64,000 nucleotides of DNA, taken from Escherichia coli (lineage in GTDB: Bacteria > Pseudomonadota > Gammaproteobacteria > Enterobacterales > Enterobacteriaceae). The translations under genes and the position numbers were made by a program. A model generated the notes under the pieces. It was not told the DNA's origin. It did not search any database and saw only the letters and a list, made by a program, of their open reading frames with translations. This document shows, one piece after another, positions 1 to 53,807 of this stretch. The stretch is taken from assembly GCF_022846255.1 (NCBI RefSeq), contig NZ_AP025682.1, one strand, 5' to 3'. How positions within the stretch are numbered: the first letter of the stretch is position 1; every line of letters starts with the position of its first letter.

Positions 1-1650
1 CTGACGGTCACCGTAACGGACTGTGGTGGAAATCCGGTTGCCAATGCCCCCTTTAGCATCAGACGTGGCGATGCTATAAATCGTCAAGGAACGGTGAATT
101 CAGCCAATCCGGTTTCACTGGATTCAACGGTTTTAACCAATACCTCGACGGAATATAAAGGAACAACTGGAGAAGACGGCACGGTGAATATTGCTGTAAC
201 CCAGAAGTCTGGTGAAGGGGTGAAAACTCCATTGTATATCAGTACGACCGGGATGGTTCAGCCGATCCAGCAGGATGTTATTTTCACCGTTGTAACCAGT
301 CCGGACAGTACGCTCGCCAATATGTGGGGCCATATGCCAGAAACCCTGACTGCGGCCAATGGGACTGTATTTGCTCGCCCCAAACTTTCTGCTGAAGCTA
401 ATGGCGGTGGTGGTACACAATCTGAGACTAACGAAGTATGGGCGATATTTAACCATAAGAAAGCAATTGCATCAGGAGCGAATGCGGTTGGTTGCGGTGG
501 GATGGAATACGTTCCCAGCGAGGAAAATTTGCACTCACTCTATAGTGCATTTTCTTCGGGAAACATCAAAATCACCCAGGGATGGCCGGTTTCTGTAATC
601 TATAAGTCCTCGACACCCGACAAATATGTAACAACAGCTCGTAATTACAATGCGGTTAACCTGAGCACCAACAGTGTGAAAGGTCAGCAAACATCCAATT
701 CAGTACACTATTTAGTGTGTCAAAAAGAGGCTGCTCCTGTCATAAAATCAATAGCCATCAGCACTCAAGATTCTCAGTATGTGTCGGTAGTAGGGTTCAA
801 TGACGCCAGAGATAATGGGGGTAGAGTGAAAACTTTTGATGCCCTGAAATTAAAAACATGGGGTAAGGGCAGTGGTTCGATGACGGTTAAAGTGACGGGG
901 AGCGATAATAAGCCATTAAAAAATGGTCCGTTTATGCTGCTACACGCTCCTGGGTTTGATCGCCAGGGCGGTATACACGCAAATCATACCGACACGGTTC
1001 AGTTTAAAGATAGTCATAGCAGTAGTACGAATAGGAATATGGGGGCTATGGACGTTTATTATGGGACAACAAATGATAGCGGTGAGCTGACGTTTTCATT
1101 AAGCCAGCCGCAGGATGGAACTGGACTAGCCGTGATCATGAGTGCCCGAGATGACGATTATGTTCATAATATACTCAGTAATGATTTCCCTGTTATTTTT
1201 GCGACAGAGACGAGCCCGGATACGAAAGAAGCGAAGTATTGGGGGTATATGTCTGAAACACAAGTACTTGGTGGCAGAGTATTTAATCGTCCTAAATTGG
1301 TGAGTGAGTTACCGGTGTCTGGGGATAGTATTAGTCCTGGAGGCGCTGATGCTGAGGTTTGGGCAGGGATTTCCGGGGATGATTCTCTTGCGGGTATTAA
1401 CGGTGGCTGTGCAGCAGATAAACGACCAACAGTAGCGGAGTTAAATGATTTGCGGTCTGTATATAATACGAGTCACCAATACGGCTACTTTATGAAAGGG
1501 GGATGGCCTGCAATCGGTAAAGATACTGGGCAGAATGAATACTGGACAGATGTTGCCGAGGCGCGTTTTGGATACATGGAGATGTATTCAGGAGATGTAC
1601 ATTACATTGCGGGTGGCCTAAACACGGCAATGCAGATCTGTGCGCAGTAA
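1..1650 (+). CDS. 3' end of a giant Ig-like repeat protein (Rat-family-like); the reading frame is open from window position 1, so the gene starts upstream of the window
   Basis: Frame 1 is open from nt 1 to the stop at 1648-1650 (ORF track lists only from the first Met at 94). The translation has two Big_1-like segments and two copies of the FTV.TSPD..WG(H/Y)M..RPKL motif that recurs nine times in the 2693-aa protein downstream. Confidence 0.75.
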   Translation: MTVTVTDCGGNPVANAPFSIRRGDAINRQGTVNSANPVSLDSTVLTNTSTEYKGTTGEDGTVNIAVTQKSGEGVKTPLYISTTGMVQPIQQDVIFTVVTSPDSTLANMWGHMPETLTAANGTVFARPKLSAEANGGGGTQSETNEVWAIFNHKKAIASGANAVGCGGMEYVPSEENLHSLYSAFSSGNIKITQGWPVSVIYKSSTPDKYVTTARNYNAVNLSTNSVKGQQTSNSVHYLVCQKEAAPVIKSIAISTQDSQYVSVVGFNDARDNGGRVKTFDALKLKTWGKGSGSMTVKVTGSDNKPLKNGPFMLLHAPGFDRQGGIHANHTDTVQFKDSHSSSTNRNMGAMDVYYGTTNDSGELTFSLSQPQDGTGLAVIMSARDDDYVHNILSNDFPVIFATETSPDTKEAKYWGYMSETQVLGGRVFNRPKLVSELPVSGDSISPGGADAEVWAGISGDDSLAGINGGCAADKRPTVAELNDLRSVYNTSHQYGYFMKGGWPAIGKDTGQNEYWTDVAEARFGYMEMYSGDVHYIAGGLNTAMQICAQ

Positions 1651-1686
1651 ATTTCAATATTAGCATTATTCTTTAAATGAATGTTT

Positions 1687-1717
1687 GCCCCCATGTTTTT
1701 ACATGGGGGCAATTTTT
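1687..1717 (+). terminator. Rho-independent terminator after the upstream giant gene
   Basis: Perfect 9-bp inverted repeat GCCCCCATG / CATGGGGGC with a 6-nt loop, followed by AATTTTT, 37 nt after the stop codon. Confidence 0.7.
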
Positions 1718-1776
1718 AATACCGATAAACCTGTGCTAAAGTTTTGCCTTATTAACCGAAATCGCAGGAGACTTCG

Positions 1777-2001
1777 ATGGAAGTGCAGTGTCCGGTTTGT
1801 CATCAATCTATTGAATTACATGGCGGTAGTGCGCATTGTGAATATTGCCAACAGGATATCGCGTTTCAGGCGCTTTGCCCGGATTGTCATCAACCCTTAC
1901 AGGTGCTAAAAGCGTGCGGTGCGGTGGACTATTTTTGCCAGAACGGTCACGGATTAATTTCTAAAAAGCGTATTGAATTTTTGCCGTTTAATATCATTTG
2001 A
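1777..2001 (+). CDS. yfgJ: Small zinc-ribbon protein, YfgJ-like (74 aa)
   Basis: AGGAG 7 nt upstream of the ATG. Four CxxC pairs (CPVC, CEYC, CPDC, plus C47/C54), typical of a double zinc ribbon. Sits where yfgJ lies next to xseA in K-12; identification from memory. Confidence 0.55.
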   Translation: MEVQCPVCHQSIELHGGSAHCEYCQQDIAFQALCPDCHQPLQVLKACGAVDYFCQNGHGLISKKRIEFLPFNII

Positions 2002-2059
2002 ATATATTGTTTTATCATTTATATATTCCATGTGAATGGTAAAACAATTTCTTACTGAC

Positions 2060-2110
2060 CGCACTATTAATATAATTGAGTATGAACAATCATGTATAAT
2101 GTTTAAGAAT
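2060..2110 (+). promoter_or_regulatory. Candidate sigma70 promoter region for sinH in an AT-rich intergenic stretch
   Basis: TATAAT hexamers at 2071-2076 and 2095-2100, the second preceded by TG; no well-spaced -35 found. AT-rich spacer 2002-2200 upstream of the sinH start. Confidence 0.25.
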
Positions 2111-2200
2111 ATATTTAGCCTTTTCTGTCGTGCTATCCCGGATGTTCTGGAATAGAATGGCAGAATTCATTTTTGACTTTATTGTCAATAGGGAAAAGGT

Positions 2201-4375
2201 ATGCTGCGATGGACACGCTGTATTATGCTAACATTTATCTCTGGGGCTGCTTTTGCGGCTCCAGAGATAAATGTTGAGCATAAAGAATCATTACCTGATT
2301 TAGGTAGTCAGGCCGCACAACAAGAAGAACAAACCAACAAGGGGAAATCGCTAAAAGAGCGTGGTGCCGATTACGTCATTAACTCCGCCACGCAAGGGTT
2401 TGAAAACTTGGCCCCTGAGGCGCTGGAATCTCAGGCCAGAAGCTATCTGCAAAGTCAAATCACCTCAACCGCACAATCTTATATTGAAGACACACTCTCT
2501 CCCTACGGTAAGGTCCGTTCGAACCTCTCCATTGGTCAGGGCGGCGATCTGGATGGCAGTTCCATCGATTATTTTGTTCCCTGGTACGATAATCAAACCA
2601 CTGTTTATTTCAGCCAATTTTCTGCACAACGAAAAGAAGATCGTACGATCGGGAATATTGGGCTTGGTGTAAGACATAATTTTGATAAATGGTTGTTGGG
2701 TGGAAATATATTTTATGATTATGATTTTACCCGTGGGCATCGCCGTTTAGGTTTAGGTGCCGAAGCGTGGACTGATTATTTAAAATTCTCTGGCAACTAT
2801 TATCACCCGCTTTCTGACTGGAAAGACTCCGAAGATTTCGATTTTTATGAGGAGCGTCCTGCGCGCGGCTGGGATATTCGCGCCGAAGCCTGGCTTCCCG
2901 CTTATCCGCAGCTTGGTGGTAAAATTGTTTTCGAACAGTATTACGGTAATGAAGTCGCGCTTTTTGGCACTGATAATCTGGAGAAAGATCCCTACGCGGT
3001 AACGCTTGGACTGAATTATCAACCAGTGCCGTTACTGACAGTTGGGACGGACTATAAAGCGGGGACCGGAGATAACAGTGATGTCAGCATTAATGCCACT
3101 CTTAATTATCAGTTTGGCGTTCCGCTAAAAGATCAATTGGATAGCGATAAAGTGAAAGCGGCGCACTCGCTGATGGGCAGCCGTCTTGATTTCGTTGAGC
3201 GTAATAACTTTATTGTTCTGGAATACAAAGAAAAAGATCCGCTTGATGTCACCCTGTGGTTGAAAGCGGATGCCACCAACGAGCACCCTGAGTGCGTCAT
3301 TAAGGACACTCCCGAAGAAGCCGTCGGTCTGGAAAAATGTAAGTGGACCATTAACGCACTCATTAATCATCACTACAAAATCGTTGCGGCCTCCTGGCAG
3401 GCGAAAAACAATGCTGCCCGCACGCTGGTGATGCCGGTTATCAAAGAGAATACTCTGACAGAGGGTAACAATAACCACCGGAACCTGGTGCTGCCTGCCT
3501 GGCAGTACAGTTCCGATCAAGCCGAACAAGAAAAACTCAATACCTGGCGGGTTCGTCTGGCGCTGGAAGATGAAAAAGGCAATCGGCAGAGCTCCGGTGT
3601 GGTGGAAATCACCGTTCAACAGGACCGTAAAATTGAGCTCATCGTTAACAACATCGCCAATGTACCGGATAAGAGCAATCACAGCCACGAAGCCAGCGCA
3701 CAGGCCGATGGTGTAGATGGTGTAGTGATGGATCTCGATATTACTGATAGCTTTGGCGACAACACTGACCGCAACGGTAATGTCTTGCCGCAGGATAATC
3801 TCAACCCGCAGTTGTTTGATGCCAACGATAAAAAAGTGACGCTGACGAATAACCCCTGCACTACCGAGACTCCCTGTGTCTTTATCGCCAAACAAGATAA
3901 AGAAAAGGGGACCGTTACGCTCTCCAGTACGTTGCCTGGCACCTTCCGTTGGAAGGCGAAAGCTGCTCCCTATGATGACAGTAACTATGTTGACGTAACG
4001 TTCCTGGGTTCTGACATCGGCGGGCTGAATGCCTTTATCTATCGTGTTGGTGCGGCTAAGCCCGTGAATCTTATCGGCAATAAAGAACCGTTGCCTCTCA
4101 ATAGCAGCTATCGCTTTGTGTTGTGGCGTGACGCTAACAAAGACGGCGTGTTCCAGCTATCAGAGAAACTCACTGAAGAGGAGATGAAACAGTATGACTA
4201 TCAGTGGGAATTCACGGGACATAGCGTGAATGGCAATACCGGTGCGCAAGCCAATACCACTAACGTCGATATAGAGATCCCGGCAACGAACAAGGAAGCG
4301 GCAGCGAAGTTTAGTGCCCAGGTAACCGATGGCGTGCAGGGATACGGTTTGCAGGTCAATTACAGCAAGAAATAG
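2201..4375 (+). CDS. sinH: Inverse autotransporter adhesin of the intimin/invasin family (SinH-like), 724 aa
   Basis: N-terminal signal peptide (…FISGAAFA/APE). Residues ~110-330 show intimin/invasin beta-barrel-type sequence (DYFVPWYD, LGLGAEAWTDYLKFSGNYYHPLSDW, GWDIRAEAWLP, LGLNYQP), followed by an Ig-like passenger. RBS GGAAAAGG upstream. Confidence 0.85.
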   Translation: MLRWTRCIMLTFISGAAFAAPEINVEHKESLPDLGSQAAQQEEQTNKGKSLKERGADYVINSATQGFENLAPEALESQARSYLQSQITSTAQSYIEDTLSPYGKVRSNLSIGQGGDLDGSSIDYFVPWYDNQTTVYFSQFSAQRKEDRTIGNIGLGVRHNFDKWLLGGNIFYDYDFTRGHRRLGLGAEAWTDYLKFSGNYYHPLSDWKDSEDFDFYEERPARGWDIRAEAWLPAYPQLGGKIVFEQYYGNEVALFGTDNLEKDPYAVTLGLNYQPVPLLTVGTDYKAGTGDNSDVSINATLNYQFGVPLKDQLDSDKVKAAHSLMGSRLDFVERNNFIVLEYKEKDPLDVTLWLKADATNEHPECVIKDTPEEAVGLEKCKWTINALINHHYKIVAASWQAKNNAARTLVMPVIKENTLTEGNNNHRNLVLPAWQYSSDQAEQEKLNTWRVRLALEDEKGNRQSSGVVEITVQQDRKIELIVNNIANVPDKSNHSHEASAQADGVDGVVMDLDITDSFGDNTDRNGNVLPQDNLNPQLFDANDKKVTLTNNPCTTETPCVFIAKQDKEKGTVTLSSTLPGTFRWKAKAAPYDDSNYVDVTFLGSDIGGLNAFIYRVGAAKPVNLIGNKEPLPLNSSYRFVLWRDANKDGVFQLSEKLTEEEMKQYDYQWEFTGHSVNGNTGAQANTTNVDIEIPATNKEAAAKFSAQVTDGVQGYGLQVNYSKK

Positions 4376-4430
4376 GATCAGCGCCATGGCTGATCGGGCC
4401 ACCGCTGAATGTTAACCAAGGAGAGTGTTT

Positions 4431-5423
4431 ATGAAACCTCATATGAAACGTGGCCTGACAAAAGTCGCGCTGGCGCTGATGCTGGCTGGATACTGTGCCG
4501 TGCCAGCCGCTATGGCGGAAGATGCCGCCTGGGTAGACAGTGGGACGACCGCTGAATTCGAAGGGACCATACCCTGGCTTTATCGCGAGGGGGGGAATGC
4601 CACGATTAACTCGGATGATGCGGATCACATCAAAGTAACGTCTGATGGTAAAGGTACTCGTCCTTCAGGTAGCGAGACGGATAAACGCCTTTACTCAGGA
4701 GATACCATCACGTTGGGGTGGGATATCGGCGATACCGAAGGGGATATCGACGATGGTCCAGATGGTATTGATGCGAAAACGACGGCGACTATCAAATGGT
4801 ACAGCTACAGCGATAATGCGGGTGGCGGTAAAACGGAGCTGACCGCAGCGGCGGGTAAGACGAGTTATAAACTCACTGATAACGAACGTGGGCGCTATAT
4901 CGGTGTTGAAATCCAGCCTATCACTCAGACCGGTAATCCCTTCCAGGGAACGTCGCTGACTCTGCTGGATATCTCAACGGCCAGCGGTGGCGGCAGCGAT
5001 ACGGACAATGTTGATCCTGGCCCGGTTGTGAACCAGAACCTGAAAGTCGCCATCTTCGAGAAAGGCACCAGTACCAACCTTATCGGTGGTAATACAGCCA
5101 TTGCGCTTAACAAAACGTATGTGGCCAAACTGTACTCGGATGAAAACCAGAACGATAAGTACGATGCGGGTACGGATGTGGACGTTACCGCTAACTATGA
5201 CTTTGCATGGGTCTTTAACGGTAACAGTAAACAACTTGCTGCGGCGGGTGGTATTGCCAACGCCAGCTTCGATAACAATGACATTGTTATTCCGCAAACT
5301 AACGAACAAGCAAGAGCCAGCCTTAACGGTAGTGACCGTAATGGTAAGACCGGTCTTGCAATCCCGGCAAACGGCGACGGCGTCCAGGGCTATACGCTGT
5401 CTATCATTTACAAACACCACTAA
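4431..5423 (+). CDS. sinI: Secreted protein of unknown function (SinI-like by position), ~330 aa
   Basis: AAGGAG 7 nt upstream of the ATG at 4431 (ORF track starts at the GTG at 4425). Signal peptide (…AVPAAMA/EDAAW). C-terminal DGVQGY motif shared with SinH; N-terminal W…G.T.EF.GT.P motif shared with the giant protein. Symbol assigned from synteny only. Confidence 0.7.
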   Translation: MKPHMKRGLTKVALALMLAGYCAVPAAMAEDAAWVDSGTTAEFEGTIPWLYREGGNATINSDDADHIKVTSDGKGTRPSGSETDKRLYSGDTITLGWDIGDTEGDIDDGPDGIDAKTTATIKWYSYSDNAGGGKTELTAAAGKTSYKLTDNERGRYIGVEIQPITQTGNPFQGTSLTLLDISTASGGGSDTDNVDPGPVVNQNLKVAIFEKGTSTNLIGGNTAIALNKTYVAKLYSDENQNDKYDAGTDVDVTANYDFAWVFNGNSKQLAAAGGIANASFDNNDIVIPQTNEQARASLNGSDRNGKTGLAIPANGDGVQGYTLSIIYKHH

Positions 5424-5431
5424 TGCGCACC

Positions 5432-5462
5432 AACAGCATTCCCGTATGGGAATGCTGTTTTC
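5432..5462 (+). terminator. Intrinsic terminator or attenuator between the sinI-like gene and the giant gene
   Basis: Inverted repeat ACAGCATTCCC / GGGAATGCTGT with loop GTAT, followed by TTTTCC, 9 nt after the stop codon. Confidence 0.45.
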
Positions 5463-5533
5463 CGCCTGTTTTGCTTAGCGACGCGTTAAGCAAAACGGGT
5501 TGACGTTTTGTTTATCATGCTGGAGTTTTCTAC

Positions 5534-8500
5534 ATGTCGGTATGTCTGAAACCAGGAAAAATCATTGTGCTTCTGGGCATGTTGGCAGCCTTTATGCTGT
5601 CTGACTTTGCACGGGCAGGAGTGGAATGGCAGACATATCCTGGTTCTACAGGCGAGTTTAACGGTACAGTTCCTATTGCCGATAGCGCCAGCGTACCCGT
5701 CTATCAGGGAAGCGTTCAGCTTGATCCTGCTGCATCTCATGATGTGGCGTTTTCTGCTAAACCGAATGAATTTAGCGTTGACGATGACGCTGCTAACCTG
5801 ATAGTCGCTAATCCTCAGGACAGTGAAGGCGACCAGTTTTCCACACCACCTGCGCTGCGCTGGGAAAAACAAACGCCGCCGACCGTTAGCCTGGTGTGGG
5901 CCGATGCCGCCACGCCGGATACGCCGCTTAATCCACAGCCTACCGCCAACCGTAGCTTTTGCGCTCAGGGCCTGGCCGGGCGTTCGCTGGTGGCCTGGCC
6001 GCAGATTGATGCGCAGCAGACCATTCCACTGCTTTATCTGCTGACTTCGACCGGTTATCCCTATGAGGGGACGGTGGCGCTGGCTGACCAGAAAGTGACG
6101 CTGAACATCGCGCCCGCGCAGGGCGATTTAATCTCGGTGAGCGCCAGTGGTTATAACGAAACGATCGCGGCGGCGAAAACCACCGTTGGTGACACCATCA
6201 CGCTAACTGTTACCACCAAAGACTGTCAGGGCAACGTTGCGGGCAATATTCCTTTTATTATCAAACGACAGGATGCGAAAAACCGCCAGGATGCGGTGAA
6301 TAACACCGCACCGGTGGTGCTGGATAGCACCGAGTTAACGACGACCGCGACCGAGTATCACGGCACATCGGATGCCAACGGTACGGCAACCATCACGGTG
6401 ACCCAACCTAATGGGCCCGGCGTCAAAACGCCGCTGGTGGTCAGCATCTCCGGCATTGCGCAAACCAGTGAGACGGCGGTTATTTTTACCGTACTCACCA
6501 GCCCGGACGTGGCGCAGGCCACGATGTGGGGCCATATGGCGGAAACGGTTGAGGCTCATGGCTACACGTTCAGCAGGCCAAAACTGGCGGCAGAAGTCAG
6601 CAATGAAAATGCCACGGTCGTCGATCACAACGAAACCTGGTCAACTTTCACCTGGAGCGGGGCAGACAGCCATTGCACCGTGCTGCCGGGCATGCGCCAT
6701 TTCGGCGCACTGGCGACCGTTATTCCCACCACGGTACAGACTGTCCTCGGCTGGCCGATGCAGGATGATTATTACTGGACATCGCTGGCGGGCACTACCG
6801 GGCAGCACCATGCGGCGGATGTCTCTAACCGTGCTGAAGCGCAAAAGCCGGATAGCACCACGTTTCTTGTAAGCTGCGTGGACAAACCCGCGCCTGACGT
6901 CGAACCGAAAATCGTCCTTACGCCAGAAAACTATGATGATACGGCACAGGCGATGAAAGCGAAGGTGGGTGAGGACGCCACGATGCGTCTGACGATCACC
7001 GACAATAAAAACAACGATCAACCGCTGGCGTATTACTACTTCTCGCTGCATCTGGATGACGGCGTTAACCGCAAAAATCAAACCGATCCTGCCTGGGAAG
7101 CTCATCCGGTACAGATTGCTGGCGGCAGTAATTTTCGCCAGGTCGACGCACATACCTATGAGGGCATGACTGATGTCAACGGTCAGGCTTCGCTAACCCT
7201 GAGCCAGCCTGGTGGCGCGGGCGTTAAAACTCACATTACGGCGAAAATGCGCAGCGATTTTAACGCCACGGATGCCAAAGATGTGATTTTTACCGTAATC
7301 ACCAGCCCGGACAGCGACAAAGCGCGGATGTGGGGCCATATGCGCGGCATTATTGAGTCCGGCAGTCTGTATAAACGCCCGTTGCTGGCGGATGAAACCG
7401 AGCATGAACTGGGAACAGTGCGGGAAAACAACGAAGACTGGGCGTTGTACGATCAAAACACCAGTATGCAGGCGGAATGCGGGGTGGGTCATATACCGCG
7501 CCAGAGCTCACTGGAAAGCCTGTTTTCAGCCCATCCCGGTAACGCGATTGGCACTGAGTATGGCTGGCCCACCGCACAACAGAGCTACCTAAGCGCGGTG
7601 GAGCAAGAAACGCATTCATCGGTGAATCTGGGGAACGGGAGCGTCGACAGCTATTCCGGCTTTAAGCAGAATTACCTCTCCTGTTCGGGTAATGAGATGG
7701 TAGCGAATGTTGAAGTCAGCACCGATCATGATGTGTCTGTTGGCACCCAAGCGCAAGCCAAAGTGGGTGACACCATCGTAATGACCGTGCGTACGATTAA
7801 CTCGCTAAATAATTCCCCGGTACCCTTTAGCGCATTCACCATTACCAAAGGTATGGGATATAACCGAGCGGGACAGGTGAGCGGGTTTGATGACCCGAGT
7901 AGCGGCGCAATCACGATGGATAACTCGCAATATGGTACATCACAGCCATCGATGGTTTATGCGGGAACAACCGATGTCCGGGGCGTGGCGACGGTCGAGA
8001 TTAAACAACCGCAGGGCGTCGGGCTAAGAACGGCGCTGAGCGTAACGCCGGTAAATTCCTACCTGCCGAATACCGTTAACTACAGCGTTATTTTTACCAC
8101 CCCAACCAGCCCGGATGTTTCCGGCGCGCAGATGTGGGGCCATATGGATGAAACGATTACCGTTGATTCATCAACCTTTAGCCGGCCTAAGCTGGCGGCG
8201 GAAATCGCCAGCCCGGACGGAACCCTGACCGAAAATAACGAAATCTGGGCGCGCGTGAGCCAGGCCAATACGTCCAGTACCAGCAAAGGCGGCTGCGGCA
8301 CCAATATGCTGCCGCGTCGCTCCCAGCTAAGCGCGTTGTATAGCGCCAACAGTGGTAACGCGGTGCAAACGACGCACGGCTGGCCAACGCAACGTCAGCC
8401 CTACTGGAGCAGCTCACCGGCGGATGTGACACCGCACTTTTTCACGATAGCGCTGAACGATGGCGCGCAGGCCATCGGCGGCAATACGCCGGTTTACGTC

Positions 8501-11500
8501 AGTTGCCTGACGACGGCGAACAAGCCTGCCAGCAGCATTACGCTGGAGGTGGTTGATAAAGCGCAATGGAATGCGGGGAATAACGCGGCAAAGCTGAAAA
8601 AAGGTGAGACACTACAGGTTAAAGTGACAGTAAAAGACTCGCAGGGTAACGCGTTAGCGGATATGCCATTTACCCTCAGTCGCGGTGATGGCTATACCCG
8701 TAGCGGCGAAAAACATATTGCCGGTAGCGGCGATGCGCTGGTAGCGCCCGTGGTGGTCAATGGCGGGTTGGCAGATGAAACAACGTTGAATGACACTGCA
8801 ACGGTGTATACCGCCATGACCGGCAGCGACGGCAGCAAAATCCTTAATATTACCCGCCCGGATACCCACGGCACCAAAACGGCGCTGACGGCAACGCTTT
8901 ACTCCGATGCGACGAAAAAAGACAGCCTGGACACGATCTTTACGGTGGTTACCAGCCCGGATAGCAGCCAGGCGAAAATGTGGGGGCATATGCCGGAAAC
9001 GGTGACGGCTGAGGACGGTACGGTCTTTAAACGCCCGCGGTTACTGAAGGAACTGAGCAGTCAGACTGGGCGAACATCAACGCTTGAAGACAACGAAAAC
9101 TGGGCGTTGTTTAACATTAATTATGCGAGCTCTTCCACGACGTATAGTGGCTGTGGAACCAACTATATTCCAACTCAGGCTGGTCTGACGTCACTGTTTG
9201 CTAATAATGCGGGCAACACCATGAAAACCGTGCAGGGCTGGCCGGTGGCAACGCGCTATTTGTCCAACACGTCCGACAATGGCAGCATGGAGCAGCGTAA
9301 CTACAAGGCGGTCGATCTCAGCAATGGCACGAGTGCGGCAGTGTCATCAACGGCGCTGCAACTGCTGACCTGTCAGACTACACCGGTAACCACGGTGAGC
9401 CAAATCCTGCTGGAAGCGGCAGATCCGGCGACGCTGGATACCACCTATAACGTGGTAAAAGCGAAAAAAGGCGAAGAATCCGTGGTGCGCGTCACCACCA
9501 AAGATGCACAAGGCAACCTGGTGGGCAATACGGCATTTATCCTGACGCGTGCCAACAGCGTGAGTCGGGCTAATGCATCAGCGACGATGAGCGTGGGCTC
9601 GTTGACGGTGACGGATGCCTGGGGCAATACGCGAAATAATTTCCAGTCGACAAGTGAAACCATTTACGGCGTGACCGGTGCTGATGGGGCAACGACATTG
9701 ACCCTGAAACAGGATAACAGTACCGGGTTAAGAACCGATCTCACGGCAAAACTGGATACGTCCAGCAGCGTCAAGGCAACGCTACCGGTGGTCTTTACCG
9801 TCGTGACCAGCCCGGATTCGCCAAAAGCGAATTTTTGGGGACATATGGCCGAAACGGTGGCGGCCTCCGATGGCTCGGTTTATAAGCGACCATTGCTGTT
9901 TGGCGAACTGACCAACAACTATGCGCGATATAGCACGCTTGAGAACGGAGAAAGCTGGGCAAGATTCACCTCGACTCAGTCGATTGACACCAGCATGAAT
10001 GGGTGTGGTACAGATTATATGCCGACGCTGGATGGTCTGAAGTCTTTGTATGACGCCAATAGCGGTAATGCGATGAATACGGTGCAGGGATGGCCGGTAA
10101 ATACGAGTTATCTCACCAACACCCCGAGTGATACACAAGCAGGGAGCCGTTACTACAATGTGGTGCAACTGAATTCTGGCGCGGTTTCGCAAATCGTATC
10201 CACAGTGCTGGCGTTACAAACCTGCCGCACGACGCCGTTGACGACTGCCAGCCAGATTACGCTGGAAGCCGCGGATCCTGCGCAGTTTGTCAGCATTGAT
10301 AGTACGCTTAGCGCTGTCAAAGCGAAGAAGGGCGATGAGGTGTCGATCCGCATTTCGACTAAAGATGCGCAGGGGAATTTAGTCGGCAATACGCCGTTTG
10401 CCCTGAAACACGCGAACTCGATCAATCGTCAAAATGTGACGTCATCGCAGAAAGTGTCGGTCACGACTGCAGCGGGTACGACGGTGGATACCAGTGCAGC
10501 GACCATCCTGTATGGCGTAACCGGGCCAGACGGAACGACGACGATGGCGCTCCGACAGGATGCGTCCACCGGACTACGAACCGACTTTTATGCCTTGTTG
10601 AACGATACCGGCGTGTCGTCGGGCACCTTGCCGGTGATCTTTACCGTTATCACCAGCCCGGACACGCCGCTGGCGGCCAACTGGGGCCATATGGCGGAAA
10701 CCTTTACCAGCAGCGAAGGCGTTACCTTCAAGCGGCCTTTCCTCAAAGCTGAACTTTCCGGCGGTACGGCGAAAACGGTCAATAATGAAGTCTGGTCGCT
10801 CCTGACATCGACTGAGAAAGCGGACGCCAGCAAGGCCGGGTGTGATGAGGCGTATCAACCGCAGACGACAGACATGCAGGGGCTGTATGCCGATTATCCT
10901 AACGGCCAACTGGCAACGGTGCTCGGCTTGCCGACTGCCGCCGGGAACTGGTGGGATTATGACATGATGGCGGCAGTGAGCAATAGCTGGAGTTACCAGG
11001 TGTTTTCGCCGGGTAATGGCCAAACGATTCAGGCATCGTCCGGCTATACGGCGGTAGTGATGTGTCTGGTAAAACCACATACGGAAGCGGCCACAATAGA
11101 GATTACCTCGACGGCGCAGGACGCAGCAAAATCGGCCAGTAATGGTGGACGACCGAGCGCCGTAGCGAAGAAAGGTGAGACGATTCCGTTGACGGTGACC
11201 GTGCGTGATAGCGCCGGGAACCCGATGCCATATGCCGACTTTACCCTCTCGCGTGAAACGACGCTGGATCGCTCGAAAACAGCTGTTAACAGTGCGGTGG
11301 ACGATCTTACCGTAACGGCATTGGTACCGGCGAACAGGGATAGCGTGTTGACAGCGAGCGGAGCAAAAACTCTCGCAACGACGGGCAGCGATGGCACTGC
11401 CACCTTTGAGGTGGGGCAGTACTCTACGACCGGGCTGGCGACGCCGTTAACCGTGACGCTGGCGCGTGATACGACGAAAGCTGCCACGCTGGATGTTATC

Positions 11501-13615
11501 TACACGGTGATCACCAGCCCGGATTCGCCGAGTGCGAAATTCTGGGGGCATATGCCAGACACCTTTACCAGCTCGGCGGGCGTCACCTTCAAACGGCCGT
11601 TGCTGAAAGCCGAAGCGACGTCAGGCTCATCAATTAGCACTAACGGTAACGGTGAAGTGTGGGCGTATATGAGCAACTTGCAAAATTTAACATCGACAGA
11701 TTGCCCGCTGGAGTATCAGCCGCGCAGCAACGAGCTGTTGGATTTATATAGCGATCACCCGAACGGCGCGATAATGACTGACCTGGGGCTACCGATATAT
11801 GCAGGCAAGTGGTGGGCTTATGATATGGTCATGCCGGATTTATATACGTGGCAGTATCAGACTGTCAGCCTGAGCACCGGAGATATCGCGAAGAGCTCGT
11901 CAACCAACGCGCTGATGCTTTGCCTGACGAAGCCGCATCCGGCAGGCGTCAGCGTAATGTTGACGTCATCCGCAATGGATAACGCCAGAAGCCTCAGTAA
12001 TGGCGGGCGACCTAGCGCGTCAGTGAAAAAAGGCAACCCACTGCCAATTGTAGTGACGGTCAAAGATCGTGATGACAACCCGCTGGCGGGAGAGGCCGTG
12101 ACGCTCAGGCGTGGTTCAGCGATGAGCCGTTCAGGAGCAGTAGTGGGCACGCCGGCAAATGCAATGACGTTGACAGAGTTGACACCCGTGTCGGCGGAGT
12201 TTTCTCTGGCCGCACACGATACGCAATGGCAAGGTTTCACCGGCAGTGATGGTACGGTCACTTTCAATGTTGAACAGCCTGAGACCATCGGCCTGGCCAT
12301 CCCGTTCACCGCTATACTGGCGCGAGATGTGGCAACCACAACTGTCCTTGATGCGATCTTTACCGTCGTCACCAGCCCGGATTCCACAATGGCGACCTAC
12401 TGGGGTCATATGCCGGATACGGTCACGGCGGAAAACGGCGTGGTCTTTGAACGGCCTAAATTGTTGAAAGAGTTGCCGTCGAGCACCGGAATTAGTCAGG
12501 TGACGGATAACAATGAAGTCTGGCCGCTGTTTAAGGCAACGCAAAGGGAAGATAGCAGCCTCAGTCCTTGTGAAGCGGCGCGTCGGCCATTGAGCGATGA
12601 TTTAGAATCGCTCTACGCGCGCTATCCGGGGAACACGCTGACGACACAAATCGGTTGGTCTACGCGGTATACATGGTGGGCGCTGGATAACTGGCAGGGG
12701 AATGCCCAGGTTGTTAGTCTGAGTGATGGCTTAAAGTGGTCGACGGTGAATACCGCGTATCAAGGGTGTCTGGTTAACCCGCGCGCGACGGTCTCCAGCG
12801 TCACGCTGACATCAACGGCGCTGGATGACGCCACACAGGCGGCGACGGTGAAAAAAGGCGACGCCGCGCCCATTGTCGTTACCGTAAAAGACAGCGCCGG
12901 GAAGCCGGTGCCAAATATCGCTTTTACCCTAAAACGCGGTGAGGCCGTGCCACGTAACAGCGGGGCGACGCTGTATGGCGATGTGGATGCGATGGACGAT
13001 TTGGCCGTGCAACCTTCATCCGGTGCGGCAGTCACGTTGGCTGACAGCGGAAATACCATCGACGGAGTCACGGGAGCGGACGGTACGGCAAGCTTTACCG
13101 TTCGTCAGGATAATACGCCAGGATATAAAACGCCGTTGACGGTGACGCTAACGGATAACGCCACCATAACGGCGACGCTGGACACGATTTTCACCGTGCC
13201 GACCAGCCCGAATGTCGCCACGGCGTATTTCTGGGGTCATATGGCGGATACCGCCACGGTAAGTGGCAAGACGCTGCATCGCCCGCTATTAAAATCGGAG
13301 TTGCCGTCAGGCGCTACCGCAGCAGCAACGCCTGATGTAAATAATGAAACCTGGGCGCTGGCGCATGTTATGGATTCCTCTAAATGGGATGTCGCGCAGC
13401 AGTGCGGCAGTATGAATAACGTGCCGAGCAGTGCCGAATTACAAACATTACACTCCGGCTTTAGCACATTGGGATGGCCGTCCTCGATAAGCTTCCCGTA
13501 TTTATCTACTGATAAGGCTGGGTCGTTCTATTGTGGTGTTGATGAAGGCTCTGGCAGTCTCAACTGTGGCATTCAGCCTGCGAAAACGCCGGGGTTTGCA
13601 ACCTGTTTCCAATAA
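5534..13615 (+). CDS. ratA: Giant secreted Ig-like repeat protein (RatA-like), 2693 aa
   Basis: GGAG 6 nt upstream of the ATG. N-terminal signal peptide (…[11 protein letters not shown]), no lipobox Cys. Nine tandem ~280-aa modules, each with a Big_1-like segment, an (I/V)FTV.TSPD…WGHM…RP.L motif and a Cys-pair segment. No beta-barrel-like region recognised. Confidence 0.85.
6170..13500 (+). repeat. In-frame tandem array of nine coding modules inside the giant gene (period ~800-860 nt)
   Basis: The TSPD/WGHM motif recurs at about nt 6500, 7300, 8110, 8950, 9810, 10650, 11515, 12370 and 13205. DNA copies are diverged, with pairs 4/5 and 6/7 most alike. Confidence 0.75.
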
Positions 13616-31192: not shown

Positions 31193-31206
31193 ATAAGGTG
31201 TTTATT

Positions 31207-31300
31207 GTCGGATGCGGCGCGAACGCCTTATCCGACCTACGCGAAGTTAATCCATAGTATTCGTAGGCCGGATAAGACGCGGCAAGCGTCGCATCCGGCA
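31207..31300. repeat. Pair of REP elements (BIME-like) between hda and yfgD
   Basis: GTCGGATGCGGCGCGAACGCCTTATCCGACCTAC and the inverted copy GTAGGCCGGATAAGACGCGGCAAGCGTCGCATCCGGCA. Confidence 0.6.
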
Positions 31301-31329
31301 ATGTGCTTCAACTAGCGATGGAGCACATC

Positions 31330-34447: not shown

Positions 34448-34545
34448 CCTTCAGCGAAAAAATTTGAAACGAGTGTTGCAGGGCAGTGAGACGATTTGAG
34501 ATGTGCTGGCCGCAAGCGCAGCCAGCACGGAATGGAGCAAAGTAA

Positions 34546-37668: not shown

Positions 37669-37696
37669 CAGGGCTGGAGTCATCCGGCCCTTTTTT
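37669..37696 (+). terminator. dapA-bamC terminator
   Basis: GGGCTGGA / TCCGGCCC hairpin (one G-U pair) followed by TTTTTT. Confidence 0.55.
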
Positions 37697-37706
37697 CTGA
37701 TATGAT

Positions 37707-37722
37707 ACGCAAACGTGTGCGT
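37707..37722 (+). promoter_or_regulatory. PurR operator (pur box) upstream of purC
   Basis: ACGCAAACGTGTGCGT, 15 of 16 matches to the PurR consensus. Confidence 0.55.
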
Positions 37723-37767
37723 CGACAGAAAAACGCGATTTTAGCGGTAATTCGCACGAAATTTGTC

Positions 37768-37822
37768 TGTCGGACGTAGGTCGGATAAGGCGTTTACGCC
37801 GCATCCGACAAAACATCCGGCA
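37768..37822. repeat. REP element in the bamC-purC spacer
   Basis: GTAGGTCGGATAAGGCGTTTACGCCGCATCCGACA, an imperfect GC-rich palindrome of the REP family. Confidence 0.5.
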
Positions 37823-37875
37823 CACCAGACAGCAAAAGATTTTAAAACGTTAATTCACACCCAGGAGTGATAAAG

Positions 37876-42430: not shown

Positions 42431-42495
42431 GGGTAGGTCTGATAAGACTGTATCAGGCATCATGGCCGGATGCGGCGTTAACGCCTTATCCGGCC
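42431..42495. repeat. REP elements between ypfH and ypfN
   Basis: GCCGGATGCGGCGTTAACGCCTTATCCGGCC palindrome plus an adjacent degenerate copy. Confidence 0.5.
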
Positions 42496-42502
42496 ACTTA
42501 GC

Positions 42503-52687: not shown

Positions 52688-53731
52688 ATGCGATATCGCA
52701 TTTTCCTTCTCTTTTTTTTCGTTTTGTTGCCGATGTCTTTGGTGTGGGCGGCACCAGCGCAACGGGCGTTTTCCGACTGGCAGGTCACCTGTAATAATCA
52801 AAATTTCTGTGTAGCGCGCAATACGGGCGATCATAATGGACTGGTGATGACCCTGAGCCGCAGCGCCGGGGCGCATACCGATGCCGTTTTACGTATTGAG
52901 CGCGGCGGGTTGAAGTCGCCGGATGCGTCAGAAGGGGAGATAGCGCCACGGCTGCTGTTAGATGGTGAGCCGTTGGCGTTAAGTGGTGACAAGTGGCGGA
53001 TTTCACCATGGTTATTAGTAACCGATGATACGGCAACCATCACCGCGTTTTTGCAGATGATTCAGGAAGGGAGGGCGATCACCTTACGCGACGGCAATCA
53101 GACTATTTCTCTGAGTGGCTTAAAAGCGGCGTTGTTGTTTATTGATGCCCAGCAAAAGCGCGTTGGCAGTGAGACCGCGTGGATAAAGAAAGGGGACGAA
53201 CCGCCGCTCAGCGTACCGCCAGCGCCTGCGCTGAAAGAGGTCGCGGTGGTTAACCCAACGCCGACGCCACTCTCACGCGAAGAACGTAACGATTTGCTGG
53301 ATTATGGAAACTGGCGGATGAATGGTCTGCGCTGTTCGCTTGATCCGTTACGTCGTGAGGTGAATGTCACTGCGCTGACCGATGATAAAGCGCTGATGAT
53401 GATTAGCTGTGAGGCAGGGGCCTATAACACCATTGATTTGGCATGGATTGTGTCGCGTAAAAAGCCGCTGGCCTCGCGCCCGGTACGGTTGCGTTTGCCG
53501 TTCAACAACGGTCAGGAGACCAATGAACTGGAACTGATGAACGCAACATTCGATGAAAAATCGCGTGAACTGGTGACCTTAGCAAAAGGGCGCGGATTAA
53601 GCGATTGTGGCATTCAGGCGCGCTGGCGCTTTGACGGTCAGCGTTTTCGCCTGGTGCGTTACGCCGCAGAACCCACCTGCGATAACTGGCATGGGCCAGA
53701 CGCCTGGCCCACGTTGTGGATCACCCGTTAA
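52688..53731 (+). CDS. ypfG: Periplasmic protein of unknown function YpfG
   Basis: 347 aa with a signal peptide; K-12 synteny. Confidence 0.85.
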   Translation: MRYRIFLLFFFVLLPMSLVWAAPAQRAFSDWQVTCNNQNFCVARNTGDHNGLVMTLSRSAGAHTDAVLRIERGGLKSPDASEGEIAPRLLLDGEPLALSGDKWRISPWLLVTDDTATITAFLQMIQEGRAITLRDGNQTISLSGLKAALLFIDAQQKRVGSETAWIKKGDEPPLSVPPAPALKEVAVVNPTPTPLSREERNDLLDYGNWRMNGLRCSLDPLRREVNVTALTDDKALMMISCEAGAYNTIDLAWIVSRKKPLASRPVRLRLPFNNGQETNELELMNATFDEKSRELVTLAKGRGLSDCGIQARWRFDGQRFRLVRYAAEPTCDNWHGPDAWPTLWITR

Positions 53732-53748
53732 ACAAAATGGCGGGGACA

Positions 53749-53803
53749 TGTAGACCGGATAAGACGCACCAGCGTCACATCCGACAATCAGCATCCGGCG
53801 ATC
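53749..53803. repeat. REP-like element between ypfG and tktB
   Basis: TGTAGACCGGATAAGACGCACCAGCGTCACATCCGACA…CATCCGGCG. Confidence 0.45.
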
Positions 53804-53807
53804 ACCA

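Follow-up and report, generated by a model that had tools for sequence, protein, structure and literature searches.

Six REP units of the y and z2 types in four intergenic spacers of an Escherichia coli chromosome segment, one of them in the purC leader

REPs, also called palindromic units, are extragenic repeats of Escherichia coli that consist of a GTAG head and an imperfect palindrome of 30-40 nt in which an AA/GC bulge is conserved (PMC8266576, PMC3333891). Three types are distinguished, y (35 nt), z1 (29 nt), and z2 (37 nt), with ~600 extragenic copies that are often paired as BIMEs (PMC8266576, PMC3333891), and the published totals for MG1655 are 355 REP elements and 697 units. Two kinds of BIME are of importance here. 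BIME-1 (RIB/RIP) is a single inverted REP pair at the 3' end of transcription units, in which z1 and y units are separated by a long L linker with an IHF site. BIME-2 combines y and z2 units in inverted orientation into tandem arrays with an S linker and s/l/r motifs, and shows strong binding and cleavage by DNA gyrase (PMC2817692). Inverted doublets that fold as one long hairpin have been described as REPINs (Bertels and Rainey, PMC3116915). At the RNA level, REP325 of the yjdMN operon acts both as a partial Rho-dependent terminator and as an mRNA stabiliser, and a REP is found in about 30% of convergent spacers (bioRxiv 10.64898/2026.03.23.713779). Terminal REPs have been reported not to prolong half-lives when considered genome-wide. 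BIMEs are furthermore known from the literature as a source of intergenic polymorphism.

The window analyzed here is a 64-kb stretch of an E. coli phylogroup-B2-like chromosome that extends from guaBA to the eut genes and corresponds to 2.57-2.63 Mb of MG1655 in reverse orientation. Gene names were obtained by projecting the annotation of Nissle 1917 onto the window (window position = locus position + 10,499), and ypfG, tktB, and talA were added to the gene list by comparison with MG1655. The first part of the gene order reads guaB, guaA, pdeF, ppx, ppk, purN, purM, upp, uraA, hda, yfgD (arsC family), bepA, yfgO, and bcp, and the second part gcvR, dapA, bamC, purC, ypfJ, tmcA, ypfH, ypfN, dapE, yffB, acrD, narQ, aegA, and nudK. 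Around the hda/yfgD site, a 1.5-kb piece shares 99.9% identity with Nissle 1917, ATCC 11775, and further human isolates; it was found in 5,425 of 5,426 complete E. coli genomes.

Exactly six REP units, referred to as u1 to u6 (Table 1), are present in the window and are distributed over four spacers (hda/yfgD, bamC/purC, ypfH/ypfN, and ypfG/tktB). All six belong to the REP (palindromic unit) family of E. coli and are of the y or z2 type. Units u1, u3, and u5 were compared with the published Y consensus and units u2 and u6 with the published Z2 consensus (PMC2817692), and the five align with the identities listed in Table 1 (30-33 of 35-37 positions). Moreover, an independent nhmmer profile, built from the six REPs that flank rayT in MG1655 (REPtron) and unrelated to the copies in the window, recovered the same five units; in u4 only positions 1-16 align to it, a weak match (E=0.59). 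Neither this profile nor one built from the six units revealed further copies in the 64-kb window at E<0.5. Unit u3 matches the REP that was co-crystallised with TnpA_REP at all but one of 32 positions. The GTAG head 5' of the palindrome is kept in five of the six units (u1, u2, u3, u4, and u6) and reads GTGG in u5. In the predicted folds of u1-u3 and u5, a 2x2 internal loop (AA/GC) lies between the GGAT/ATCC and GNCG/CGNC stems; u6 has a variant AA/CA loop and the inner stem of u4 is gone. The free energies of the hairpins are 4.4 to 7.8 SD below those of shuffled sequences at hda/yfgD, bamC/purC, and ypfH/ypfN, and 1.4-2.6 SD below at ypfG/tktB.

Table 1. Positions of the REP units and associated features in the 64-kb window (Y and Z2, identical positions relative to the published consensus; E, E-value with the independent MG1655 REP profile)
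Feature	Position	Strand	Remarks
u1, y-type REP	31206-31240	-	inverted REP on the + strand; starts 13 nt past the hda stop; Y 32/35; E=6.2e-9
u1-u2 linker	31241-31262		22 bp between the GTAG-proximal ends; read from the sequence
u2, z2-type REP	31263-31300	+	ends 29 nt before the yfgD stop; Z2 33/37; E=6.2e-7
3' end of the orthologous K-12 bepA-yfgD RNA	31264	-	foot of the z2 hairpin (A of CTAC); mapped over 61 nt with one mismatch
bamC intrinsic terminator	37670-37696	+	from terminator scan; upstream of u3
purC -10 hexamer TATGAT	37701-37706	+	coordinates checked on the window
PurR operator of purC	37707-37722	+	same 16-mer as the ChIP-chip PurR site for purC (PMC3159470)
purC transcription start	37713	+	inside the PurR operator; orthologous to the mapped MG1655 start
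Leader duplication, copy A	37723-37757	+	~35 bp, upstream of u3; aligns over 35 nt to the single-copy Citrobacter werkmanii leader
u3, y-type REP, single	37776-37810	+	+64 to +98 of the purC leader; Y 32/35; E=2.2e-9
Leader duplication, copy B	37827-37860	+	downstream of u3; adjoins the purC ribosome-binding site
u4, degenerate z2	42433-42459	+	starts 10 nt past the ypfH stop; GTAG and outer stem intact, apex deleted
u5, y-type REP	42464-42497	-	GTAG changed to GTGG; 5 nt from the ypfN stop; Y 31/35; E=7.9e-9
u6, z2-type REP, single	53750-53786	+	18 nt past the ypfG stop, 21 nt before the tktB stop; Z2 30/37; E=3.5e-4
REP-tail-like fragment GCATCCGGCGA	53791-53801	+	kept in all three allele types of the spacer; weak alone

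When compared with the E. coli REP of the y and z2 types (Gilson, Bachellier and Hofnung; nomenclature of Ton-Hoang et al. 2012, PMC3333891), u1, u2, u3, and u6 combine the GTAG head, the palindrome of 35-38 nt, the bulge, the apex, the extragenic position, and the high copy number, and u5 shows all of these features except the GTAG head. Departures are seen in u4, which measures 27 nt and is without an apex, and in u6, where ACATC stands instead of GCATC. Judged by the annotation of Nissle 1917, whose record is near-identical, all six units lie outside genes. A 101-nt query spanning the hda/yfgD site matched at least 40 places per genome in 5,425 of the 5,426 complete E. coli genomes, and the REP matches elsewhere in E. 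coli overlapped no annotated feature among the matches listed. An earlier sequence-only reading of the window had described GC-rich imperfect palindromes at 31207-31300, 37768-37822, 42431-42495, and 53749-53803, had assigned them to REP/BIME elements, and had called these typical of E. coli-group chromosomes. The content is as it described at all four places, and both the family assignment, which it had proposed to check with REP consensus sequences and which a failure of the palindromes to align with the REP family would have overturned, and the multicopy, dispersed character expected from counts in other genomes hold up. The REP repeats in the window are ordinary and already known, with nothing new in kind. 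The density is ordinary as well: in 64 kb, four elements and six units are found against ~4.9 and ~9.6 expected from the MG1655 totals, and three of the four elements lie between convergent genes, against a published genome-wide share of ~60%.

The share of the spacer that is REP amounts to 69% at hda/yfgD, 81% at ypfH/ypfN, and 49% at ypfG/tktB, and to 17% at bamC/purC. Because of these shares, the earlier statement that the palindromes explain much of the unassigned intergenic structure is right for the first three spacers and too broad for bamC-purC, where the non-REP part consists of the bamC terminator, the purC promoter, the PurR operator, and the leader. Two further statements likewise need to be narrowed. 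All copies are intergenic, but they do not always lie between gene ends, as the bamC/purC copy is in the 5' leader of purC and not in a 3' region; and the joint label REP/BIME suits hda/yfgD and ypfH/ypfN, which are REP pairs and BIME-like, but not the other two sites, which are single REPs. For annotation, 230-odd bases can be labelled REP/BIME and dropped from the unexplained intergenic structure. A scan of the whole window with Rfam returned no family at gathering score, and a whole-window scan for short-range inverted repeats yielded, besides the REPs, just ordinary terminator-like hairpins. REP-tail-like short fragments adjoin u3 (37768-37775 and 37813-37822) and u6 (see Table 1); they are weak alone, and such 10-mers are common in the window.

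Taken as a whole, we consider it very probable that the window holds six y/z2 REPs, namely one intact pair, one decayed pair, and two singletons, that were spread by TnpA_REP and that have an effect at the RNA level at the convergent spacers.

The intact pair lies in the 137-bp spacer between the convergent genes hda and yfgD, where u1 and u2 are predicted to fold together as one long hairpin (-56.1 kcal/mol, z=-7.8). It shares the inverted orientation of y and z2 units with BIME-2. Its GTAG ends, however, face each other across 22 bp, which is the geometry of the junction between two BIME-2 units. As there is a single pair with the linker geometry of an inter-unit junction, we regard the site as a partial or atypical BIME. 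The long hairpin also recalls the inverted doublets of REPINs, from which the pair differs in that its arms are of different types (y and z2) and the hairpin is imperfect. A minority allele, found among ~490 records in the 90-95% identity band, has a 32-bp deletion in which the linker and the greater part of u1 are lost. The stretch from the z2 REP to the yfgD stop (31301-31329) contains another, separate hairpin, AATGTGCTTC..GAGCACATC, which is imperfect, has no T-run, and is conserved in K-12.

The decayed pair is located in the 80-bp spacer between ypfH and ypfN, which are also convergent. Here the non-GTAG ends of u4 and u5 face each other across a gap of 4 nt. K-12 and E. albertii have a full z2 plus y unit at this site, with linkers of 12 and 16 nt, respectively, and the allele of the window is thus a derived, deleted form. 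Because u4 has a length of 27 nt, close to that of z1, it was considered as a z1 unit; the comparison with K-12 and E. albertii identifies it as an apex-deleted z2 and rules this out. Both alleles are common in E. coli, the short one of the window occurring in ~2,525 records and the long one of K-12 in ~2,809. The z2 plus y composition and the facing non-GTAG ends correspond to the arrangement at the S linker of BIME-2, and the 12-nt linker of the K-12 allele is like the S linkers beside rayT, whereas in the window the linker has been reduced to 4 nt.

At all sites, the window differs from BIME-2 by having one pair per locus at most instead of tandem arrays with S linkers and s/l/r motifs, and the ypfH/ypfN pair, like that of hda/yfgD, is better classed as a partial or atypical BIME. 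With BIME-1, the pairs have in common that a single inverted REP pair stands at the 3' end of transcription units. Membership in BIME-1 was nevertheless rejected for both, because no z1 unit is present and because the linkers of hda/yfgD and ypfH/ypfN contain no match to the IHF consensus WATCAANNNNTTR with up to one mismatch.

The remaining two sites hold single REPs. One of these, u3, lies in the 212-bp spacer between the tandem genes bamC and purC. The start of purC has been mapped in MG1655 (NC_000913.2 2,595,803) and gives a 163-nt 5' UTR (PMC3415461, supplementary file 2). As this start corresponds to window position 37713, u3 occupies +64 to +98 of the purC mRNA. The Term-seq 3' ends of bamC in K-12 (2,597,798/9; PMC7815308, supplementary file 1) map to 37695-37696 of the window, at the bamC terminator and ahead of the REP. 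From this layout, u3 can be said to sit in the 5' leader of purC and not at the 3' end of a gene. Within the leader, a stretch of ~35 bp is present on both sides of u3, and its two copies share a gapless 13-nt core repeat (37745-37757 and 37848-37860). A purC promoter at TCGACA-18-GGTAAT downstream of the PurR box, with the ~35-bp repeat as a duplicated core promoter, was also considered and is ruled out by the mapped start, which falls within the PurR box; the repeated ~35 bp belong to the leader. The purC REP is a clean, species-wide case of a REP in a 5' leader, an unusual place given that the family is described as residing mostly in 3' UTRs.

The leader was compared across species in a scan that used one exact 16-mer PurR operator and one genome per species. 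In ~50 species of Enterobacteriaceae among the matches listed, the purC ATG is separated from the operator by 49-53 nt and there is no REP. In four Escherichia species the interval between the operator and the ATG is 152-153 nt (171-172 nt from operator to ATG), and it measures 126 nt in Salmonella enterica subsp. arizonae and 129 nt in Citrobacter koseri. All long-form leaders among the matches listed contain a REP of the species' own type between two leader copies of ~35-40 bp.

The purC-leader copy is most likely a tolerated old insertion. An alternative is that u3 has been recruited to control the stability, translation, or attenuation of the purC mRNA as an element of its 5' UTR. The element is transcribed as part of the mapped 163-nt leader and its hairpin is strong (z ~-6). 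Records sampled from all parts of the ranking agree in the length of the bamC/purC spacer, and no fewer than 5,405 of the 5,426 genomes cover 80% or more of the query; the other three loci, by contrast, have indel alleles. The layout is kept at nearly constant length in the four Escherichia species, and in S. arizonae and C. koseri, too, a REP is flanked by duplicated leader sequence. On the other hand, the ~50 species with a short leader cope without a REP (among the matches listed), the REP decays within Escherichia itself (the outer arms show no conservation, one species has lost GTAG, and E. albertii has mismatches in the stem), and the published K-12 Term-seq data report neither a 3' end nor a small RNA in the purC leader. 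Such a co-option is in our judgement unlikely. A related and similarly doubtful scenario is that the REP and the ~35-40-bp duplication predate the split of Escherichia, Salmonella, and C. koseri, with the REP having been kept in step with its genome by conversion or replacement and the leader having been retained as a tuner of purC; the shared layout is equally compatible with three independent insertions into a preferred target or with a neutral passenger. The cross-genus layout of purC could serve to examine if concerted evolution links REPs at orthologous sites to the other REPs of a genome.

At the three convergent spacers, a role of the REPs at the RNA level is to be considered. A terminator scan found no intrinsic terminator in the hda/yfgD, ypfH/ypfN, and ypfG/tktB spacers, and the mRNA 3' ends of the three convergent pairs therefore probably depend on Rho and the REP hairpin. 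The functional 3'-end data come from K-12, whose alleles differ from those of the window at ypfH/ypfN and ypfG/tktB. In K-12, the bepA-yfgD transcript has a 3' end mapped by Term-seq at MG1655 2,618,003 (+) (PMC7815308, supplementary file 1), which by orthology is exactly the foot of the u2 z2 hairpin on the bepA-yfgD sense strand. Bicyclomycin-sensitive Rho termination regions have been reported for K-12 at 2,618,272 (+), antisense to hda and ~270 nt past the hda/yfgD site, and at 2,593,424 (+), antisense to ypfH and ~350 nt past the ypfH/ypfN site (PMC7815308). By orthology, these regions fall at ~30995 (-, inside hda) and ~42070 (-, inside ypfH) of the window. Because of the antisense Rho regions in hda and ypfH, the bepA-yfgD and dapE-ypfN transcripts appear to cross the BIMEs into the convergent neighbour. 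The K-12 Term-seq data report no 3' ends at the REPs of ypfH/ypfN and ypfG/tktB or on the hda strand of hda/yfgD (PMC7815308). The tktB-sense 3' end of K-12 maps past u6 to window position 53687, at a hairpin inside ypfG; this GGGCCAGGCGTCTGGCCC hairpin (53687-53714, -) lies in the 3' end of the ypfG coding sequence, and the 61-nt region around it is identical between K-12 and the window.

A mechanism may be proposed in which transcription enters or crosses a convergent spacer and Rho would terminate it in the antisense region beyond, after which the stable REP hairpin would halt 3'-to-5' exonucleases and thereby leave a protected mRNA 3' end; the REP may in addition contribute partial, bidirectional termination. 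For the RNA-level role at 3' ends, K-12 lends support on the bepA-yfgD strand of the hda/yfgD orthologue, and at the other sites and strands we infer it. The K-12 data at hda/yfgD fit REP325, where a REP in a 3' region serves as an exonuclease barrier and partial Rho terminator. REP325 differs in that it comprises 12 units between tandem genes, whereas the sites of the window have one or two units mostly between convergent genes. REPs within 15 nt of stop codons were reportedly treated by Liang, Rudd and Deutscher in 2015, and the REPs that lie 13, 10, and 5 nt past the hda, ypfH, and ypfN stops could presumably stall terminating ribosomes.

The palindromes stand where terminators are expected and three of the spacers have no other one, so that they might be thought of as gene-specific hairpins, i.e., private terminators or attenuators that merely resemble REPs. 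No T-run follows any of them, however, the consensus is common to unlinked loci, and at least 40 copies are present per genome, which makes this reading highly improbable.

As to their origin, the REPs would be non-autonomous single-strand-DNA elements that have been spread and rearranged by TnpA_REP (RayT), encoded elsewhere in the genome or absent. TnpA_REP needs an intact GTAG and bulge (PMC8266576, PMC3333891). Units u1-u3 keep both the GTAG and the AA/GC bulge and could thus still be substrates of the enzyme, while u4, which has lost its apex, and u5, whose head is mutated to GTGG, are probably inert for mobility when judged against the published requirements. The 64-kb window does not encode rayT. 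A query consisting of the 3' end of MG1655 yafL, rayT, and flanks was covered to at least 80% in 3,550 of the 5,426 complete E. coli genomes, and rayT is absent in 35%. Its loss has been published for B2 strains such as CFT073, and some genomes, for example that of strain JCM 5491, keep yafL and the flanking BIMEs without rayT.

At three of the four loci (hda/yfgD, ypfH/ypfN, and ypfG/tktB), indel alleles are present that are confined to REP sequence. These loci may be used as strain markers, and one of them swaps the REP for another repeat family. This is the 76-bp spacer between the convergent genes ypfG and tktB, which holds u6, the most diverged of the full-length units, with a weak fold (z=-2.6 and -1.4). 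Three alleles are found here: that of the window, a K-12 type in which 18 bp of the 5' half of the REP are duplicated, and a third that carries an unrelated repeat instead of the REP. The third was observed in the E. coli O6:K2:H1 strain C 691-04A, where a GC-rich sequence ..CCCCTCGCCCCTCTGGGGAGAGGGTTAGGGTGAGGGG.. is orthologous to 53732-53807 of the window. The CCCCTCGCCCCTCTGGGGAGAGGGTTAGGGTGAGGGG repeat is dispersed and unannotated, the median number of places per genome being 16; near full-length matches (at least 80% of the query) are present in 831 genomes, presumably at ypfG/tktB. It appears to resemble the boxC family.

That other families use such spacers, as in the O6:K2:H1 strain, could suggest that the palindromes of the window themselves belong to another dispersed enterobacterial family (ERIC/IRU, boxC-like, or MITE). 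With the GTAG head, the GATAAG...GCATC arms, and the y/z2 apex seen in the units of the window, and with the alternative ypfG/tktB repeat being unrelated to them in sequence, there is hardly any probability left for this reading. Although short REP-tail 10-mers are frequent by chance in coding sequence, chance GC-rich palindromes can be dismissed altogether, as the two-arm pattern GATGCGRCG-N3-12-CGYCTTATC occurs four times against 0.00 expected from shuffles and the REP 3' motif CTTATCMGRCCTAC (up to two mismatches) five times against 0.72 expected, a count reached by none of 100 shuffles, and as the profile gives E-values down to 2e-9.

Two further observations concern the gene content of the window. 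The hyfABCDEFGHIJR-focB cluster, which spans ~13.9 kb between bcp and yfgO in MG1655, is missing; at its position (34448-34545) there is just a 98-bp spacer with the bcp terminator hairpin, and neither a REP nor another scar is present. The first ~13.6 kb (1-13589) are taken up by a very large gene for an adhesion domain-containing protein, which is located upstream of xseA and measures 8,052 bp in Nissle 1917.
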